This document shows positions 9,751 to 38,594 of a stretch of DNA of 64,000 bases, piece by piece. The stretch is from a virus, in IMG/VR virus record IMGVR_UViG_3300035670_000014, positions 106,949-170,948 of that record; one strand, 5' to 3'. How positions within the stretch are numbered: position 1 is the stretch's first letter; the number at the start of each line of letters is the position of its first letter. Below the pieces are notes generated by a model. The model saw only the letters and a list, made by a program, of their open reading frames with translations, had not been told where the DNA came from and did not search any database. Both the position numbers and the translations under genes were made by a program.

Positions 9751-9778
9751 TTACCCTCTTAGATTGCGATTGGAGCAA

Positions 9779-9851
9779 TGTATCTGTCGGGACTCGAACC
9801 CGAAATCAGTAAATTAAAAGTTTACTGCCTTACCAATTAGGCCACAGATAC
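9779..9851 (-). tRNA. tRNA-Lys(TTT)
   Basis: GTATCTG/CAGATAC acceptor, GTAAA-CTTTTAA-TTTAC anticodon arm. Confidence 0.9.
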
Positions 9852-9864
9852 AAATAAAGAAAAA

Positions 9865-9947
9865 TGCCCAGAGCGGGACTCGAACCCGCAAGGCCCTAAG
9901 GCCGGGGGATTTTAAGTCCCCTGCGTCTACCATTTCGCCATCCCGGC
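9865..9947 (-). tRNA. tRNA-Leu(TAA), copy A
   Basis: GGGGA-CTTAAAA-TCCCC arm, long variable arm, GGTTCGAGTCC. Confidence 0.9.
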
Positions 9948-9978
9948 ATTTACCCCAGTGAGCGGGGTGTTCTATCTA

Positions 9979-12266: not shown

Positions 12267-12360
12267 CTTGTTTCCTAGATCAAAGGGCGGAAGTGCCTAT
12301 CAGATAGACACCGCTTGTGGAAGATCTTACAAGATCCTAATGCAATACCCTAATGCGAAG

Positions 12361-12444
12361 TACCGAGAGCGGGACTCGAACCCGCAAGGCCCTAAAGCCA
12401 GGGGATTTTAAGTCCCCCTTCTTTACCAGTTTGAACACTCGGGC
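12361..12444 (-). tRNA. tRNA-Leu(TAA), copy B
   Basis: GCCCGAG/CTCGGT acceptor, GGGGA-CTTAAAA-TCCCC arm. Confidence 0.85.
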
Positions 12445-12448
12445 GAAA

Positions 12449-12523
12449 TGCACTCAGCCGGATTTGAACCGGCAACCACCGAATTATGAGTACGGTGCTC
12501 TAACCAGATTGAGCTATGAGTGC
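12449..12523 (-). tRNA. tRNA with CAT anticodon (elongator Met or lysidine-modified Ile2)
   Basis: GCACTCA/TGAGTGC acceptor, CCGTA-CTCATAA-TTCGG arm; lacks initiator features. Confidence 0.85.
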
Positions 12524-12591
12524 AAATTAGCTAAATAAAGCCTAAGAAATTGCCGGAACGGCAATCGGATATTGACTTATATAGCCTCTTA

Positions 12592-12942
12592 TTAAAGATA
12601 CATTTCTTCTTCAAGATCTGTGTTACCGCTACCATTACCATTAGTAGAAAAATCCCCAGCACAACGACTAAAGCCACAACCTAGTCCAAATTTGACAAAG
12701 CTCCCATAGCCATGGCCTCTACCACTACCATCACCATGAAGATCTATAGATCCATGACTTGAGCTAATACCAGAACCAAAGCCAGTAAAGAGTGGCTGAC
12801 CATATTGGTCGCCATTACCATGACCAGTTAGGTAGCCAGATGCCACCCCATGAGCAACTCCTGGACTTGCACCGCATAGCTTATTAGTGCCAGCTGAATT
12901 GCTTAATCCAGCACCATAGCCTGTTTCTGTGTTTTTATACAC
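12592..12942 (-). CDS. Gly-rich (GxGxG) protein 1
   Basis: GYGAG, GHGNG, GFGSG repeats; acidic tail. Confidence 0.7.
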   Translation of the reverse strand: MYKNTETGYGAGLSNSAGTNKLCGASPGVAHGVASGYLTGHGNGDQYGQPLFTGFGSGISSSHGSIDLHGDGSGRGHGYGSFVKFGLGCGFSRCAGDFSTNGNGSGNTDLEEEMYL

Positions 12943-12968
12943 TATAAGCTCCTTAGGTTATTACTAAT

Positions 12969-13208
12969 TTAGTAATCTTGACTTGAACCAGTGCAGTCCC
13001 TGACTCCAGACCCATGAGCAATACCTCCTCCTATTCCTTTCATGTTTGAAGATCCAGGAGAAGAACCAAAACCAGCTCCGTAGCCTTTAGCGTTTTCTGT
13101 CAGATCATTAGATTGATTAGCACAACCGTAACCAGTACATTTATAATATCCATCACCATTTGAAATTCCGCCTCCATAATTAAATGTAATATTTTCAGTA
13201 TGAGTCAT
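12969..13208 (-). CDS. Gly-rich protein 2 (start MTHTEN)
   Basis: GYGAGFGSSPGS, GIAHGSG. Confidence 0.6.
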   Translation of the reverse strand: MTHTENITFNYGGGISNGDGYYKCTGYGCANQSNDLTENAKGYGAGFGSSPGSSNMKGIGGGIAHGSGVRDCTGSSQDY

Positions 13209-13521
13209 ATGTGCCACAAAGAGAGAAAGAGTAAACAGAAGACTTAGTCCTTTCTGCGTTAGTAGGAAATTGATTACCAAATCCCATTCCAGTTAAGTCT
13301 TTATTACCTGGGGATGTTGCCAGACCATCGCCTTCTCCAGTTAAATTAGTTTCACCAAATCCGTGAGCAATACCATCTCCCAAGCCTATAAATTGATTTA
13401 GACAATAATAGTTATCAAGGCTACTAAGTCCAATTCCCTTGCAGTTCTGTGAACCATATGAATTGGAATTTTGGAATTCAAAAGTTTCTGTCATGGTATG
13501 TCCTTCAAAAGATTCGGTCAT
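13195..13521 (-). CDS. Gly-rich protein 3
   Basis: GLGDGIAHGFG, GEGDG. Confidence 0.6.
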   Translation of the reverse strand: MTESFEGHTMTETFEFQNSNSYGSQNCKGIGLSSLDNYYCLNQFIGLGDGIAHGFGETNLTGEGDGLATSPGNKDLTGMGFGNQFPTNAERTKSSVYSFSLCGTYDSY

Positions 13522-13966
13522 TAGTTATAGCTGAGCCAGAAAGAGATAAATCTCCATGTGCCAGGTCGTCACCTCCACCAAAGCCCATAGGAAGTGAAGA
13601 TTCAAAGCCTGAAGCTTCACCAATACCGTCTCCATAACCATTGAGCATGCCATCGCCGGCGGCAAAAGCAATGCCCATACCATAACCTGATATATCAATA
13701 AATCCAAATGAAGAGCCATACCCCTTTCCATTTCCTGTGGAAAGGAAGTTTCCATGGCAATCACTTTCGCCATAAGCGTCACCTGAAGAGTCATCATAGC
13801 CATAGCAACCGCTATCGCCATTGCCAAAGCCTAAAGCCTCTTCATCACCTGAACTATTGTTGTAACCATTACCAAAGCCGGTAAGGAATTTATTTCCACA
13901 GCCAAAAGATGAACCGTATCCGAGGCCATAGCCAAATTCTTTGTTATTATCTAGAGAATCAACCAT
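13505..13966 (-). CDS. Gly-rich protein 4
   Basis: GYGLGYGSSFGCG... multiple ~16-aa GxG units. Confidence 0.7.
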   Translation of the reverse strand: MVDSLDNNKEFGYGLGYGSSFGCGNKFLTGFGNGYNNSSGDEEALGFGNGDSGCYGYDDSSGDAYGESDCHGNFLSTGNGKGYGSSFGFIDISGYGMGIAFAAGDGMLNGYGDGIGEASGFESSLPMGFGGGDDLAHGDLSLSGSAITNDRIF

Positions 13967-13974
13967 AAGTTACA

Positions 13975-14262
13975 TTATTCAGTTTCATAGTCATCAGCGC
14001 CTTCACCTTCACCATAGCAGCTACTGTGACCTTTAGCAGAGCTATAGCCACAACTAAAGCCATTGGCGTTTTTACTTCCAAAACCACAACTCATGCCACA
14101 GCCTGAGCCTTGATAGCCGAAGCCAGCAGCGCCACCTTCGCCTTGAGCAATTCCATTACAACTGCTATCACCAGATGCATCCGATTTACCATAACCCCAG
14201 CCATTATTTTCACAATAGCCGTATTTATAGTCAAGGGAAAGGGTAAATTCAGATTCAGTCAT
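13975..14262 (-). CDS. Gly-rich protein 5 (start MTESEF)
   Basis: GWGYG, GFGYQGSGCG; ends DDYETE. Confidence 0.7.
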   Translation of the reverse strand: MTESEFTLSLDYKYGYCENNGWGYGKSDASGDSSCNGIAQGEGGAAGFGYQGSGCGMSCGFGSKNANGFSCGYSSAKGHSSCYGEGEGADDYETE

Positions 14263-14528
14263 ACTTCCTCCCAAGGTGATTCACTACCGCTTTCGATTAG
14301 ATAAGCGTGTGCTTCGCTTATATCATTGAACGCCTGAAAACCGTTTTTGATTAGATAGGCGTGAACTTCGTTTACGTCATTGAACACTTGAAGATCACTA
14401 CTTGTATCTAGGCGTACTACTGTTTCCTTTTCGTCGTCTGGGGTATCTACGTTGATGGGCATAGGTGGGTACAGGTATATTACCCCTGCCTCAGTGACTG
14501 ACCGCCAGCCTTTACGCAGCTTTAACAT
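14259..14528 (-). CDS. SPWEEV-family paralog 1
   Basis: MLKLRKGW...YLYPP...EAHAYLIESGSESPWEEV. Confidence 0.75.
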   Translation of the reverse strand: MLKLRKGWRSVTEAGVIYLYPPMPINVDTPDDEKETVVRLDTSSDLQVFNDVNEVHAYLIKNGFQAFNDISEAHAYLIESGSESPWEEV

Positions 14529-14806
14529 ACTTCCTCCAAAGGGGATTCTACTTCCTCCCATGGTGATTTATTACCTGCCTTAATCAGTAATTCATGCGCT
14601 TCCAGAATACTGCTAAATATCAGAAACTCGCTATCACTAGCGCGTCGTAATGACTTTGGATATGCCACTACCTCTTTTTTACCGTCTGGCGCATCCAGAT
14701 AATAAACGTACCATTCGGAACCAGACGTATCTCTACCGGGCGGATACAGATAGGTTATTCCATCCTCAGTAACCAAATCCCATTCGTTACGTAATTTCAG
14801 TGTCAT
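14522..14806 (-). CDS. SPWEEV-family paralog 2
   Basis: MTLKLRNEW...YLYPP...EAHELLIKAGNKSPWEEVESPLEEVC. Confidence 0.75.
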   Translation of the reverse strand: MTLKLRNEWDLVTEDGITYLYPPGRDTSGSEWYVYYLDAPDGKKEVVAYPKSLRRASDSEFLIFSSILEAHELLIKAGNKSPWEEVESPLEEVC

Positions 14807-14978
14807 ACTTTCTCCCACGGCGACTCGCTGCCTCTAGGCGAGGGTGCGACGTACCTAACCACCTCGCGCCAAACCGGCGAAAAGCAATCTCAAGCATTTC
14901 TGCCTGAAGCTCGGCCTGTGATTTTGACCGCACTTCGTCAAGCAGTCGATCTATGAGCTGCTTCGTTTCGGTGCTCAT
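14787..14978 (-). CDS. hypothetical protein (MSTETK...)
   Basis: Start supplied by GGAGGCAGT-ATG junction repeat. Confidence 0.55.
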   Translation of the reverse strand: MSTETKQLIDRLLDEVRSKSQAELQAEMLEIAFRRFGARWLGTSHPRLEAASRRGRKYDTEIT

Positions 14979-15079
14979 ACTGCCTCCCATGGCGATTCGT
15001 CGCCGCAGCCGTTGCCGCTGCCGTCGCGGCCACTGCTGTAGCCGTAGCCGCATCCTGTCTGTGTATTATTCTGAGTCAT
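14975..15079 (-). CDS. 34-aa chimeric Gly-rich peptide MTQNNTQTGCGYG...GDESPWEAV
   Basis: Manual translation; begins with MTQNNTQ junction and ends with ESPWE junction. Confidence 0.55.
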   Translation of the reverse strand: MTQNNTQTGCGYGYSSGRDGSGNGCGDESPWEAV

Positions 15080-15081
15080 CG

Positions 15082-15591
15082 TCATCGCGAGTACCCGAGT
15101 TCCCGCAAGCGAATCAATATCATATACGCGGACACATCGAAGTCGCGCGCCAGCTGGTTACCGTCCACCATCCCACGCACCCGGATGGCTGCATGCATGT
15201 AGTCGGTCGGCATAAGGAAGCTGGTAGCAAACCGATTAGCCTGTCGTTCCTGGATGGGGTCACCGCTTCCCCGAAGTTCGGTGTCTCGAAATACCAGACC
15301 GATGGGGTGCAGGAGGATGTGCCCAAGTTCGTGCGCCATCGTGAACCGCTGGCGTTGGTGCGAATCGCCAGCCCGAACCCAAATCTGGCCATATCCAAGC
15401 ACGTCGGTCTTGGCAGCGCCGGCCACGTCCATCACCGAGCGATAGACTGCGATGCCCAAGGAGTTGCAGAGCGCCTCCACATTAACTGGCAGACCCTTGA
15501 CTTGAAGCTGATTCAAAACCAACTGCGCCGCAAGTTGTGGGGAGTTAGTAGCCCACGTTTCCACTATGTTTTTGAGTTCAGTCCAATGCAT
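15082..15591 (-). CDS. ImmA/IrrE-family metallopeptidase (DUF955)
   Basis: LPVNVEALC...RQRFTMAHELGHILLH...ERQANRFATSFLMP...LARDFDVS; start MHWTEL after GAGG. Confidence 0.88.
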   Translation of the reverse strand: MHWTELKNIVETWATNSPQLAAQLVLNQLQVKGLPVNVEALCNSLGIAVYRSVMDVAGAAKTDVLGYGQIWVRAGDSHQRQRFTMAHELGHILLHPIGLVFRDTELRGSGDPIQERQANRFATSFLMPTDYMHAAIRVRGMVDGNQLARDFDVSAYMILIRLRELGYSR

Positions 15592-15748
15592 GCCGACCTC
15601 GCGAGCTAGGTGTTGACTCGCTGCAACCGTATCCGCTGCTATGAGCGCCGCCATAACCACTACCGCCGGTGTTGCCGGTGCCGTAGCCTTCACCGTATCC
15701 GTAGCCGCTGCCGGAGCCGACGCCTGTCTGTGTATTATTCTGAGTCAT
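15578..15748 (-). CDS. Gly-rich protein (MTQNNTQTGVGSGSGYG...)
   Basis: GxG repeats; C-terminus runs into the ImmA start. Confidence 0.55.
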   Translation of the reverse strand: MTQNNTQTGVGSGSGYGYGEGYGTGNTGGSGYGGAHSSGYGCSESTPSSRGRHALD

Positions 15749-16076
15749 AGTCATCATCGTCATCACTTGCGGTGCCATTGCCATAGCCTTCTCCCTCTCC
15801 AAAGCCGAAACCGTTACCGTAGCCATAGCTATCGCCGCTACCATAGCCATCACCGCCACCAGAGCCGGTGCCGTAACAATAGCCTAATCCGTTTCCAGAT
15901 CCGTAACCTTTGCCCCATCCGTAGCCATCGTCATCGCCATAACCATCGCCAGAGCCAGAGCCTTTTCCGCGGCCAGAGCATTTTCCGCGGCCAGATCCGT
16001 AACCTTTGCCCCATCCGCAGCCGAAACGGTATCCGTTGCCGGAGCCGCTGTCTATCTGTGTATTATTCTGGGTCAT
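15735..16076 (-). CDS. Gly-rich GYG/GDG repeat protein (MTQNNTQIDSGSG...DYDSE)
   Basis: Alternating G-x repeats. Confidence 0.7.
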   Translation of the reverse strand: MTQNNTQIDSGSGNGYRFGCGWGKGYGSGRGKCSGRGKGSGSGDGYGDDDGYGWGKGYGSGNGLGYCYGTGSGGGDGYGSGDSYGYGNGFGFGEGEGYGNGTASDDDDDYDSE

Positions 16077-16416
16077 TGTCATCTCCGCAGCCTTCGCCGT
16101 AGCCGTTGCCTCCGCCGTTGCCGTCGCCGCGACGGTAGCCGCTGCCGTAGCCGTCTCCGGCGCCATAGCCATAGCCGTAGCCATCACCGCATCCATGGCC
16201 GCGACCGGGGCCACAACCATCTCCGCTGCCGTAGCCTTCGCCGTTGCCATATCCATAGCCATATCCATATCCGCAGCCGTCGCCGTTGCCATGGCCATAG
16301 CTGTAGCCATAGCCGTAGCCATCACCGCATCCATGGCCTCGACCATCGGCGTATCCTTCTCCGCAGCCATCGCCGCGCCCTGATTCGGTCTGTGTATTAT
16401 TCTGTGCTATCGACAT
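16063..16416 (-). CDS. Gly-rich GYG/GDG repeat protein (MSIAQNNTQTESG...DNDPE)
   Basis: GGAGG RBS; alternating G-x repeats. Confidence 0.7.
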   Translation of the reverse strand: MSIAQNNTQTESGRGDGCGEGYADGRGHGCGDGYGYGYSYGHGNGDGCGYGYGYGYGNGEGYGSGDGCGPGRGHGCGDGYGYGYGAGDGYGSGYRRGDGNGGGNGYGEGCGDDNDPE

Positions 16417-16732
16417 CGCCACCTCCATCGCCGCGACCGCAATCGTAGCCACCACCGTAGCCGCAGCCATGGCCGTAGCCATCTCCTTCGCCGTAACCTT
16501 CGCCGTAGCCGTCGCCGTTGCCGTAGCCGACGCCGCCGCCGTAGCCGCTGCCGTATCCGCTACCGCTACCGTCGCCATTTCCTTTGACGTGACCTTCGCC
16601 GTTGCCGTAGCCGTGGCCGTCTCCGGTGCCCCAGCCGTAGGCGTAGCCGTAGCCGCCTCCCTCGCTGCCGTCGCGGCCACTTCCGTAGCCGTTGCCGTAG
16701 CCGTCGCCGCGCCCTGAAGTCACGGTGTCCAT
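16397..16732 (-). CDS. Gly-rich GYG/GDG repeat protein (MDTVTSGRGDGYG...DSTE)
   Basis: Alternating G-x repeats; overlaps the DUF6948-like gene. Confidence 0.75.
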   Translation of the reverse strand: MDTVTSGRGDGYGNGYGSGRDGSEGGGYGYAYGWGTGDGHGYGNGEGHVKGNGDGSGSGYGSGYGGGVGYGNGDGYGEGYGEGDGYGHGCGYGGGYDCGRGDGGGDVDSTE

Positions 16733-17019
16733 ACGGGTGCCCCCATGACACTAGCTGCACCTGCTTCGGAGCAGAGCACAATCTCCACCACGTCACACGA
16801 AACAACCGCAGCAACGACCGGGGCAACCTTGCTCTCCGCGTGACTCAGGCCGTTCGCGGCAATCCCGTGACAGGACGCTGCCCCGCTCCAATACCAGACC
16901 TTGCGCGCATCACGCAACACGCATGACTTGCTGGCAAGGTCCAGAGACACCAATACTCCGACGTGGACACCCGCGCGGTGGTCCCGAACCAACACTGTCT
17001 TTCCAACAAACTGTACCAT
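16720..17019 (-). CDS. DUF6948-like phage protein, copy 1
   Basis: VLVRDHRAGVHVG...DARKVWYWSGAASCHGIAANG; family recognised from memory. Confidence 0.7.
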   Translation of the reverse strand: MVQFVGKTVLVRDHRAGVHVGVLVSLDLASKSCVLRDARKVWYWSGAASCHGIAANGLSHAESKVAPVVAAVVSCDVVEIVLCSEAGAASVMGAPVWTP

Positions 17020-17082
17020 GATCTCTTCTCCTCTTGTTACGCCCGAAATTGGGCATTTTGCGAACCAAAATATGGAATGTAG

Positions 17083-17328
17083 TTAAAGCACTTCTTCCCA
17101 CGGCGATTCGCTACCGCTTTCAATTAGATAGGCGTGAGCCTCATTCATGTCATAAAATACCATATATTCTTCTTTCCCATTGGGGTATGCTGCTATTTCT
17201 TTTTCACCGTCTGCTATATCTAGATAATCGACGTACCAGCCGTTACCAGTGGTGACTTCCTCTAGAGGATATAAATAAGTTACTCCACGATCGGTAACTG
17301 ATTTCCACCCTTTCCTTAATTTCAACAT
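17083..17328 (-). CDS. SPWEEV-family paralog 3
   Basis: MLKLRKGW...AYPNG...EAHAYLIESGSESPWEEVL. Confidence 0.75.
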   Translation of the reverse strand: MLKLRKGWKSVTDRGVTYLYPLEEVTTGNGWYVDYLDIADGEKEIAAYPNGKEEYMVFYDMNEAHAYLIESGSESPWEEVL

Positions 17329-17564
17329 ACTTCCTCCCAAGGCGATTCGCTGCCAACGCTCAGAAGGTAAGCGTGGGCTTCTTCTATAGAGTCAAATTCA
17401 AAATCATTCATACCGCCGTTGGGATACACATAAATCCCTTTGCTTTCGATTAAAGCATAGGCGTGCCCCCAGCTCTCCCCTTCCCGGTAAATCCGTTCAT
17501 GGCCTTTTCGGTAAGGATTATACATTTTTTCAATTTTCCAACCCTCACGTACTTTCAGTGTCAT
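17322..17564 (-). CDS. SPWEEV-family paralog 4
   Basis: MTLKVREGW...YPNGG...EAHAYLLSVGSESPWEEVC. Confidence 0.75.
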   Translation of the reverse strand: MTLKVREGWKIEKMYNPYRKGHERIYREGESWGHAYALIESKGIYVYPNGGMNDFEFDSIEEAHAYLLSVGSESPWEEVC

Positions 17565-17803
17565 ACTTCCTCCCAAGGCGATTTGCTACCAACGCTTAAC
17601 AGGTAAGCGTGTGCTTCTTCGGTGGATTTACATTTAAATGAATCATTCCCACCATTTGGATATGCATAAACAATTTTAGCATTTAAATCCATATAGACAT
17701 ACCAAAAAGGACCAAACTTAGGGCTAGTCCAGGGCGGGTAGAAATAAATGCTGCAATCTGTTTCCCAAGTCTTCCATCCTTCCCTTAATTTCAACATAGT
17801 CAC
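17561..17803 (-). CDS. SPWEEV-family paralog 5
   Basis: MLKLREGW...AYPNGG...EAHAYLLSVGSKSPWEEV. Confidence 0.75.
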   Translation of the reverse strand: MTMLKLREGWKTWETDCSIYFYPPWTSPKFGPFWYVYMDLNAKIVYAYPNGGNDSFKCKSTEEAHAYLLSVGSKSPWEEV

Positions 17804-19850: not shown

Positions 19851-19880
19851 TGTATTCTCCGTTTTGTTGTTAGGGACCAG

Positions 19881-19954
19881 TGACCCCGACAGGAATTGAA
19901 CCTGTGGCCTACGGATTAGGAATCCGTCGCTCTATCCGACTGAGCTACGAGGTC
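19881..19954 (-). tRNA. tRNA-Arg(CCT)
   Basis: GACCTCG/CGGGGTC acceptor, ACGGA-TTCCTAA-TCCGT arm. Confidence 0.9.
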
Positions 19955-20010: not shown

Positions 20011-20319
20011 TTACGCAGGCTCAGGTCCCCATTCTGGGCAGTCCATTACTGAACTTGCACCTTCTGGGGTACAGAGTACTACTTCTACCACATCTGTAGA
20101 AGCAACCATGGGCACCATGGGTGCGACCCTGCTACCCTTGTGGCACAAGCCTCTGGCTGCAATGCCATGACATGAGGCAGCGCCTTCCCAATACCATACC
20201 TTGCGCGCATTTGTCAAAGTGCACGTTTTTGATGGCAAGTCAAGTGACACCAGTGTACCTACATGTACACCTGCACGGTTGTCTCGAACGAGAACAACCT
20301 GATTGATCATTGTATCCAT
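20011..20319 (-). CDS. DUF6948-like phage protein, copy 2
   Basis: Near-paralog of 16720-17019 (VLVRDNRAGVHVG...ARKVWYWEGAASCHGIAARG). Confidence 0.7.
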   Translation of the reverse strand: MDTMINQVVLVRDNRAGVHVGTLVSLDLPSKTCTLTNARKVWYWEGAASCHGIAARGLCHKGSRVAPMVPMVASTDVVEVVLCTPEGASSVMDCPEWGPEPA

Positions 20320-37906: not shown

Positions 37907-38030
37907 AACTCCTCCGATGGTTAACCTATACACCATAAGGTAAGGGATTAACAGAGAATGAGACGACATGTCTCATTCCCCATGAAAAAAGAATGCAACC
38001 AGGCCGAAGCCTGGCTGCATTCTTCAAACT

Positions 38031-38468
38031 TTATGCCCAGTTTCTACTCTTGGCCTTGAGGGGCCTGTGGTACCTGGGCTCCGGTGGTGGGAGCTTTGCC
38101 GGCTCCCACTCCTGGGCCCAGGCCAGTCGCTCTTCCGCCTCCCGCTCCAAGCGGGCCCGGAGGCGGCGGTCGGCCTCCGCCTCTTCCCGGGCGGCCTTGG
38201 CCGCCTGGGCCTCCCGCACCAGGCGGGCGTCTTTCGACGCCCACTCATTTTCCCAGGCCGAGCACCTGGGTACGTAGTCGGGCATTGGGGCCTGCGCCCA
38301 GAGTGGGCGCTGGTCCTTGGGTGCGGGGGCCGGGGCAGGTGCGGCGGCGGTAGTGCTGGTGGTTGCGGTGGGGGTGGTGGCGGTGATGGCAGCCATGGCC
38401 CGAGCTTCTGCTCGGGCAACGATGACTATGACTACGACGACAATAACAACGATGATGTCAAGCAACAT
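38031..38468 (-). CDS. membrane-anchored Thr/Pro/Ala-rich coiled-coil protein
   Basis: Val/Ile TM, TTPTATT-PAPAP linker, EAQAAKAAREEAE. Confidence 0.7.
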   Translation of the reverse strand: MLLDIIVVIVVVVIVIVARAEARAMAAITATTPTATTSTTAAAPAPAPAPKDQRPLWAQAPMPDYVPRCSAWENEWASKDARLVREAQAAKAAREEAEADRRLRARLEREAEERLAWAQEWEPAKLPPPEPRYHRPLKAKSRNWA

Positions 38469-38594
38469 GAGCGAAACTCCCGACTAGTACCTACTAGCCT
38501 TAATGGGATGGATAGGAAATGAGACAGAATGTCTCATTCCCCATGAAAAAAGAATGCAACCAGGCCGAAGCCTGGCTGCATTCTTCAATCTTCC

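Follow-up and report, generated by a model that had tools for sequence, protein, structure and literature searches.

Several proteins built on the small Sm barrel carry a low-complexity segment, among them Hfq, with its acidic C-terminal domain, and SmD1 and SmD3, with their Arg-Gly tails. Low-complexity sequences rich in Tyr and Gly are also known from the [G/S]Y[G/S] domains of FUS-type proteins and from the GAGAGY repeats of silk fibroin. A Gly-rich repeat tail is found in the Hfq of Acinetobacter (PMC5663733). Among phages, the (KMGCCG)35 element of Iodobacter phage phiPLPE has been listed as a GC-rich DNA repeat and possible attachment site (Comeau 2012, PMC3391216), and the domain DUF6948 (PF22253) is recorded in Pfam as a domain of unknown function. 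Here we describe an array of ten genes for small acidic proteins with a Gly-X repeat (Gly-X proteins), headed by a gene for a DUF6948 protein (DUF6948a). The array lies within a stretch of 64,000 nucleotides (the window), comprising bases 106949-170948 of IMG/VR record IMGVR_UViG_3300035670_000014, the complete genome (170,948 bp, with direct terminal repeats) of an uncultured phage. It is the largest version found of a widespread gene pair, and we judge the chances to be about even that its tandemly amplified Gly-X proteins make up one half of a widespread phage module and act as partners of the other half, the Sm-like DUF6948 protein.

The association of the two gene types was assessed in IMG/VR, where 417 relatives of DUF6948 were found and 80 loci were fetched; all counts out of 80 given here refer to these loci. 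In 74 of the 80, the DUF6948 gene is followed at its 3′ end by a Gly-X gene in the same orientation, and this neighbourhood analysis agrees with the initial annotation of the window, in which DUF6948 genes were said to sit commonly beside a Gly-rich open reading frame (ORF). In the window, the first gene of the array (G1) begins with an ATG at 16732, ahead of the DUF6948a stop codon at 16720-16722, and the identical 13-nt overlap, with the ATG on the conserved C-terminal Trp codon, is found in 53/80 loci. As the DUF6948 proteins of these loci are only 32-61% identical to the query, persistence of the overlap points to a selected coupling, and the position of the G1 start inside the end of DUF6948a suggests that the coupling is translational. 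The same Gly-X pairing is seen in loci L005, L006, L009 and L045-47, and Gly-X ORFs are nearly absent elsewhere in the 10-kb loci. A single Gly-X gene is present in 70 loci, two are present in 4, five in 2 (L087 and L090) and none in 4. With one gene in 70/80 loci and a maximum of five, a set of ten is exceptional; it had been called striking, and it does fall outside the range of the 80 loci. In 9 of the 74 loci with an adjacent Gly-X gene, the contig ends within that gene, which indicates that assemblies tend to fail at these repeats. Across this wider family, the X residue is Ser (29%), Tyr (28%) or Asp (25%), and the median isoelectric point (pI) is 4.1.

Some of these loci have features of their own. 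Two further uncultured phages, L087 (7535-8766) and L090 (5362-8356), have Gly-X genes in tandem runs of four or five, each run with a common leader of its own (MDESI.YDYGG; M.NEE), and the L087 array is found 2.2 kb from DUF6948. The partner proteins of L061, L063, L066, L072 and about 20 similar loci form a subfamily of 213-280 aa in which the Gly-X part is preceded by an N-terminal domain without repeats (METLETRIK...) that may serve as a structured handle on the tail. The genes immediately upstream of DUF6948 in L045-L047 encode a PAPS-reductase-like protein and an N6/N4 DNA methyltransferase, and RecT is found beyond them.

The gene at the head of the array, initially described as DUF6948-like, encodes a true member of the family. 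Residues 6-90 of its 99 match PF22253 with an E-value of 2.6e-17 and 63.2 bits, against a Pfam gathering cut-off of 27 bits. An AlphaFold2 (AF2) model of DUF6948a made with a 20-sequence alignment has a predicted local distance difference test (pLDDT) score of 95.3, and nearly all of the top 40 Foldseek matches to this model are Sm/LSm proteins with TMq of 0.5-0.6 (6ppn_H, E 7.8e-4, TMq 0.60). The best VIA match is 6ppv_A (Z 8.8, root-mean-square deviation 2.0 over 66 residues), where a Z near 8 is trustworthy only if the matches are coherent, as is the case here. Identity to Sm proteins is 10-23%. By its predicted structure, DUF6948a folds as an Sm/LSm small barrel, and the most conserved side chains of the family are R12, R39 and W44. 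A profile search at E ≤ 1e-3 gave 2012 cluster representatives (clustering at 50% identity). A tblastn search of cultured phages with DUF6948a gave only 3 weak matches, and no fusion of DUF6948 to a Gly-X protein was found among ten longer representatives of the family. The phage genome has two DUF6948 copies, both above the Pfam cut-off.

All ten Gly-X ORFs of the initial annotation are present on the minus strand, with stops where they had been placed. Its division into GC-rich and AT-rich members is likewise clear, with GC contents of 0.54-0.67 for G1-G5 and 0.38-0.45 for A1-A5; the GC content at third codon positions (GC3) is 0.50-0.72 and 0.19-0.31, respectively. In the window the X residues are Tyr, Ser, Asp, Asn and Cys, in falling order of frequency; these five are also the main X residues of the GC-rich set. 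In the AT-rich set they are mainly Tyr and Phe, the Gly content goes down to 16-25%, and the proteins have a G(I/V/L)AHG motif in common. All ten proteins have a pI of 4.1-6.0, and acidic tails, which had been described as frequent, are found in G1, G2, G3, A1 and A5. A Gly-rich spot at 37986-38519 was considered as a further family member and rejected, as it is a different GC-rich gene.

The Gly register is a property of every member of the array. When the 2349 ORFs found in all six frames of the 171-kb genome are ranked by GxG density, all ten are within the top 12, and GxG is enriched in each of them relative to shuffles of its own composition (p ≤ 0.02). Nine of the ten proteins have fewer adjacent GG pairs than the mean of their shuffles, and in six the difference is significant. 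Gly-Gly pairs are 1.4-3 times enriched at lags 2, 4 and 6 in all ten, and are depleted at lags 1, 3 and 9 in the nine longer proteins, with the 36-aa G5 as an exception at lag 9. The longest unbroken Gly-X runs comprise 45 residues in G1, 53 in G2, 17 in both G3 and G4, 7 in G5 and 5-11 in the A set. The strict Gly alternation that had been claimed for the array is therefore literal only in G1 and G2; in G3-G5 it is shorter, and in the A set it is degenerate but still in register.

Repeats of this type could also be evolutionary noise, produced by duplication of simple-sequence DNA at a short junction repeat (J1, described below), in which case most of the ORFs, A1-A5 and G4 above all, would be drifting neutrally or breaking down, or the repeat would have a role as DNA. 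Stops are indeed scarce in most of the six frames of the GC-rich repeats, with one reverse frame fully open in G2 and G3, so that ORF logic alone is weak for them. G4 is a truncated copy, the A set has lost much of its Gly, no homologue of A2 was found at E ≤ 1e-3, contigs often break within such repeats, and the phiPLPE repeat was listed as DNA. Against this explanation, the Gly-X frame is the sole fully open frame in each of the five A-set genes, where the chance of such openness is 5e-5 to 2e-3 per gene, and these ORFs of 79-153 codons retain start codons, overlaps and a ribosome-binding site. The wobble base of the Gly codons is variable (entropy 1.4-1.7 bits), being dominated by C in the G set and drawn from T, C and A in the A set. 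A wobble position that is free while Gly and its register outlast a full change of codon usage indicates that the amino acid is conserved, and not a hexanucleotide. In the closest relative, the 960-bp ENA contig L044, both G1 and G5 are again found as ORFs, and their starts, ends and junctions agree with those in the window. Judged by the openness of the A set, the free wobble base and conservation in L044, which together fix the frame, the ten Gly-X ORFs are probably real genes, and we consider it improbable that the additional copies are noise.

The ten genes appear to have a common origin. The 16-mer J1, CAGAATAATACACAGA, occurs exactly four times, compared with 0.06 expected occurrences. 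At the G1/G2, G2/G3 and G3/G4 boundaries it is read twice, as x-Glu-stop in the upstream frame and as QNNTQ in the +1 frame, and the downstream gene starts 14-20 nt before the upstream gene has ended. This is the arrangement first noted at three junctions, where the DNA of a shared QNNTQ leader also encodes the end of the preceding gene; the fourth copy of J1 lies behind a peptidase gene, at the boundary with G5, where the downstream start likewise precedes the upstream stop. In the A set, the tail DNA of A1 is 82% identical to the G3 tail plus J1 (repeat family D7), the A2/A3 and A3/A4 boundaries retain an overlapping +1 start, and the leaders of A4 and A5 (MTHTEN and YKNTET) resemble MTQNNT. 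We read the A-set boundaries as carrying decayed J1 copies, with tool support for the A1 tail only. Together, J1, its decayed copies and the leader echoes point to a single ancestral leader-core-tail unit for all ten genes, and by this reading of the junctions they are one paralog family. In IMG/VR, J1 gave 34 single matches, none of which is beside a Gly-X ORF. These matches are due to chance or are unrelated, so by this search J1 is private to this lineage.

Comparison with L044 gives an indication of how and when the array grew. The DUF6948 protein of L044 is 91% identical to DUF6948a (85% in DNA), and the gene order on the contig is a SPWEE-gene, DUF6948, G1′, J1, G5′ (33 aa), a SPWEAV junction and the next gene. 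There are thus two Gly-X genes only; G2, G3, G4 and the M78 peptidase gene described below are all missing, suggesting that G2-G4 arose as local duplications bounded by J1. Growth of the array would then have occurred by unequal recombination at J1. The DUF6948 orthologues differ by 0.53 synonymous (dS) and 0.08 non-synonymous (dN) substitutions per site, and the dN/dS of 0.15 is that of a gene under purifying selection. G1′ agrees with G1 in its N-terminus, its period and its acidic tail, but in only 18/62 non-Gly columns, so that by this comparison the G1 core is changing fast.

The base composition of the A set matches that of the phage itself, and that of the G block does not. This contrast fits with an older resident A layer and a more recently acquired or maintained GC-rich block; A1-A5 would be the older, AT-adapted layer of the family. 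The block at 14787-17080, which contains DUF6948a, G1-G5, the peptidase gene and a small ORF, has a GC content of 0.55-0.68 and lies between SPWEEV genes of GC 0.41-0.46, so it looks like a compositional island inserted in a SPWEEV array. A second junction sequence, CCNTGGGAGGAAGTATGA, was observed at 7 sites (14259-14992 and 17325-17578) against 0.11 expected. It encodes SPWEEV-stop for the upstream gene and provides GGAGG and an ATG for the next one, and its copies flank A1, the GC-rich block and five SPWEEV genes that are paralogous to one another. The L044 gene that follows the G5′/CCNTGGGAGGAAGTATGA junction has an N-terminus unlike that in the window (the contig covers only about its first 22 residues), so cassettes may have been exchanged at the SPWEEV junction.

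The peptidase gene is embedded in the G block. It matches PF06114 at E 4.5e-21 and 75 bits (cut-off 22 bits) and has HELGH, a form of HExxH, in its translation. No other copy exists in the genome, and the nearest relatives are at most 41% identical. The database call for this peptidase, P0192, has 190 aa and begins in G4 (15592-15693) in another frame. Because the GC-rich repeats are open in several frames, gene callers can pick wrong or extended frames, and the 169-aa start looks the better one from the sequence. A Pfam search recognised no Xre-type repressor beside the gene: the ORF at 14787-15053 has no match at E ≤ 0.1, and the flanking genes are Gly-X genes.

One initial proposal was that the Gly-X proteins are leader-plus-core substrates of this embedded peptidase. 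They would then be precursors of ribosomally synthesised and post-translationally modified peptides, similar to microcin B17, matured by the M78 enzyme. A short shared N-terminal leader, variable cores rich in Gly, Ser and Cys, a tandem arrangement and a peptidase gene inside it are all features that such precursors would have. ImmA/IrrE enzymes, to which M78 belongs, are known as repressor-cleaving proteases. The gene is absent from L044 and from 80/80 related loci. Its absence from L044, and the way in which G4 runs into non-repeat sequence after 36 Gly-X residues, suggest that it was inserted into G4, which it disrupts. The 9-residue leader is dictated by the overlapping junction, of which it is a by-product, and the genome has no YcaO or radical-SAM gene, although host enzymes could act instead. 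With a peptidase that is not conserved and no such modifying gene, the precursor hypothesis has little support, and we regard maturation by M78 as very improbable. We infer from its distribution that the peptidase is an ordinary stand-alone enzyme, brought in as a cassette, and not a member of the module.

A second proposal was that the Gly-X proteins form polyglycine-II or β-roll decoys. A regular glycine scaffold, either a polyglycine-II bundle or a Ca-binding β-roll, would be in keeping with the very high Gly content, and the Asp-rich positions could bind metal. RTX β-rolls are made of nonapeptide GGxGxDxUx repeats, and none of the ten proteins has a GGxGxD motif. Polyglycine-II bundles of the snow-flea antifreeze type require G-x-x, and the ratio for Gly pairs at lag 3 lies at 0-0.67 throughout the array. 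The period is 2, with lags 3 and 9 depleted, and a single-sequence AF2 model of G2 has a pLDDT of 35 and no secondary structure. These results do not support the proposal, and we regard a scaffold of either type as very improbable. The Gly-X proteins are probably disordered according to the model, where single-sequence AF2 is weak evidence; a period-2, silk-like β-sheet is possible.

Of the three functional options offered initially, namely decoys, peptidase substrates and binding partners of DUF6948, partnership with DUF6948 is the best-supported, by virtue of the conserved coupling inferred at the gene overlap. The conserved coupling, the Sm fold with R12, R39 and W44, and an acidic, Tyr-rich, disordered partner together suggest a two-protein complex on single-stranded nucleic acid. 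DUF6948 would form oligomers in the manner of Sm proteins and bind single-stranded nucleic acid in the early phase of infection, with the Gly-X proteins as detachable low-complexity acidic tails. These tails could compete with nucleic acid at the conserved Arg/Trp surface of the barrel, as with the acidic C-terminal domain of Hfq, or could alternatively cross-link complexes through multivalent Tyr/Asp contacts. The ten paralogs would form a set of tails that vary in length and chemistry. Frequent neighbours of DUF6948 are RecT, YqaJ and replication genes, and SSB genes are near in the window, making single-stranded DNA (ssDNA) as plausible a target as RNA.

The Gly-X proteins might instead act alone, as acidic decoys or mimics that imitate, for instance, nucleic acid or the disordered tails of host proteins and soak up host defence or repair factors, with the coupling serving only for co-regulation. 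All ten are acidic, the module lies in early regions beside recombination and replication genes, arrays away from DUF6948 exist (that of L087, and the A set), and fast diversification fits an arms race. The 13-nt overlap kept over deep divergence in 53/80 loci speaks for stoichiometric co-production and against co-regulation alone. A hydrophobic tip of the SSB type is also lacking in the tails, and no defence-related family was seen among those frequent neighbours that were annotated. We therefore see independent action as mimics or decoys as unlikely.

Several observations weigh against a functional partnership of the Gly-X proteins with DUF6948. A Gly-X gene is missing from 4 of the 80 loci and is kilobases distant from DUF6948 in 2. 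Only 10/65 members of the wider family have an acidic tail, and the disorder of the proteins is taken from the weak single-sequence model. The second copy in the genome, DUF6948b, has no adjacent partner: the overlap ATG is kept, the frame stops after 3 codons, and a tRNA-Arg gene is found in the partner's place. A1-A5 are 2.5 kb from DUF6948a, behind unrelated genes, and with no detectable homologue of A2 the A set could be drifting. As repetitive DNA duplicates easily, copy number alone need not be selected. The RecT, YqaJ and replication neighbours could mean that the target is ssDNA or recombination, or could merely reflect placement in the early region.

With these points in mind, we extend the partnership reading only tentatively, to a proposal that we think has a rather low chance of being right: that DUF6948 and Gly-X proteins are a new and widespread two-component class, in which a nucleic-acid-binding, Sm-like ring is provided with a stoichiometrically coupled and rapidly diversifying tail in trans. 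The array would here be a ten-member library of tails, J1 would double as a recombination site, and the tails would drive multivalent assembly or tune nucleic-acid binding early in infection.

The features of the locus are collected in Table 1. The genome is a GC mosaic, with structural genes at about 0.34-0.44 and early cassettes up to 0.64, and the array region is on the minus strand, tightly packed and early. In the order of transcription there are three SPWEEV genes (17083-17803), DUF6948a, G1-G4, M78, G5, the ORF at 14787-15053, two SPWEEV genes, A1-A5, tRNA-Met and tRNA-Leu. Scans for promoters and terminators within the array gave no more than the shuffled level. Genes for tRNAs (Lys, two Leu-TAA, Met and Arg-CCT) are seen at cassette boundaries, at 9778-9948, 12360-12524 and 19880-19954. 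The ESM Atlas returned only unnamed viral clusters at 0.89-0.90, which we treat as a lead and not as evidence.

Table 1 Positions in the window of the DUF6948 genes, Gly-X genes, peptidase gene and junctions.
Feature	Position	Strand	Description
DUF6948b	20011-20319	-	Second copy over the Pfam cut-off, without partner gene
DUF6948a	16720-17019	-	99 aa; heads the array; Pfam PF22253
13-nt overlap, DUF6948a stop/G1 start	16720-16732	-	ATG on conserved C-terminal Trp codon (A TGG NNN NNN TGA)
G1	16397-16732	-	111 aa; 45% Gly; pI 4.1; tail end D-S-T-E
J1 copy 1, G1/G2	16389-16404	-	Exact 16-mer
G2	16063-16416	-	117 aa; leader MSIAQNNTQ; six Cys; tail D-D-N-D-P-E; 53-residue strict Gly-X run
J1 copy 2, G2/G3	16055-16070	-	Exact 16-mer
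G3	15735-16082	-	115 aa; leader MTMTQNNTQ; poly-Asp tail
J1 copy 3, G3/G4	15727-15742	-	Exact 16-mer
G4	15578-15763	-	61 aa; leader and ~36 aa of Gly-X, then non-repeat end overlapping the peptidase start
ImmA/IrrE (M78) metallopeptidase	15082-15591	-	~169 aa from ATG behind GAGG site
J1 copy 4, M78/G5	15058-15073	-	Exact 16-mer
G5	14975-15085	-	36 aa; leader MTMTQNNTQ; short Gly-X core; end in SPWEAV junction
A1	13975-14262	-	95 aa; start is an ATGA overlap with SPWEEV junction; tail D-D-Y-E-T-E
A2	13505-13966	-	153 aa; AT-rich Gly-X paralog; P(open frame) 5e-5
A3	13195-13521	-	108 aa; start overlaps A2 end by 14 nt, +1 frame (by reading, decayed J1)
A4	12969-13208	-	79 aa from MTHTEN; start overlaps A3 end (by reading, decayed J1)
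A5	12592-12942	-	116 aa; GTG start behind AAGGAG; leader YKNTET; last before tRNA-Met and tRNA-Leu

Overall, nearly every DUF6948 locus inspected carries a coupled Gly-X gene, yet our literature search found no paper on DUF6948 or on a Gly-X gene, and the only published mention found of such a repeat, that in phiPLPE, treats it as non-coding DNA. The value of this locus is that its two compositional layers separate constraint on the protein from constraint on the DNA, while L044 dates the expansion and J1 offers an explanation for the growth of the array. If the Sm-like protein and its tails in trans do work together, they would be a counterpart in bacterial viruses of the regulation of Sm and Hfq proteins by their tails, and the DUF6948/Gly-X pair would be a tractable model for the function of low-complexity proteins.

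Among named phages, annotated Gly-X genes are found in Barba15S, in Ralstonia phage NK-7 (‘fibroin heavy chain-like’) and in ctOK67 (‘lamprin’); in Rheinheimera phage Barba the pair is gp019/gp018. These pairs, and those from IMG/VR, have the same strand, order, overlap and Gly-Tyr/Asp/Ser chemistry as seen here. They differ in that one gene, rarely two to five, is present in the other pairs, whereas the window has ten, which fall into two compositional layers and have a junction of their own. The Barba and ctOK67 upstream genes are too diverged to be recognised by Pfam, and their alignment by hhalign with the DUF6948 family was not significant (E 0.7 and 0.11), so that position and a similar local motif are all that point to homology between these genes and DUF6948. 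Iodobacter phages are among the DNA matches, and the phiPLPE repeat is of the same hexanucleotide class; it reads (Gly-X)35 on the other strand, and was published as a DNA repeat and not as a gene. The M78 peptidase is a typical HExxH member of the ImmA/IrrE group, but is located inside a Gly-X gene.

The Gly-X proteins resemble FUS-type domains and fibroin in their dense GYG and GFG motifs and in their period-2 Gly register. Unlike these, they are very short, acidic and phage-borne, and have no RNA-binding domain in cis. With the Sm/LSm proteins and Hfq, the DUF6948 module shares the combination of a small Sm barrel, here recognised from a predicted fold, with a repetitive Gly-rich or acidic segment that is probably disordered here. 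In contrast to SmD1, SmD3 and Hfq, the tail is not fused to the barrel but encoded in trans, by a separate gene joined through the 13-nt overlap. It is also acidic and Tyr-rich where the SmD1 and SmD3 tails are basic, and in this phage it has been amplified to ten.

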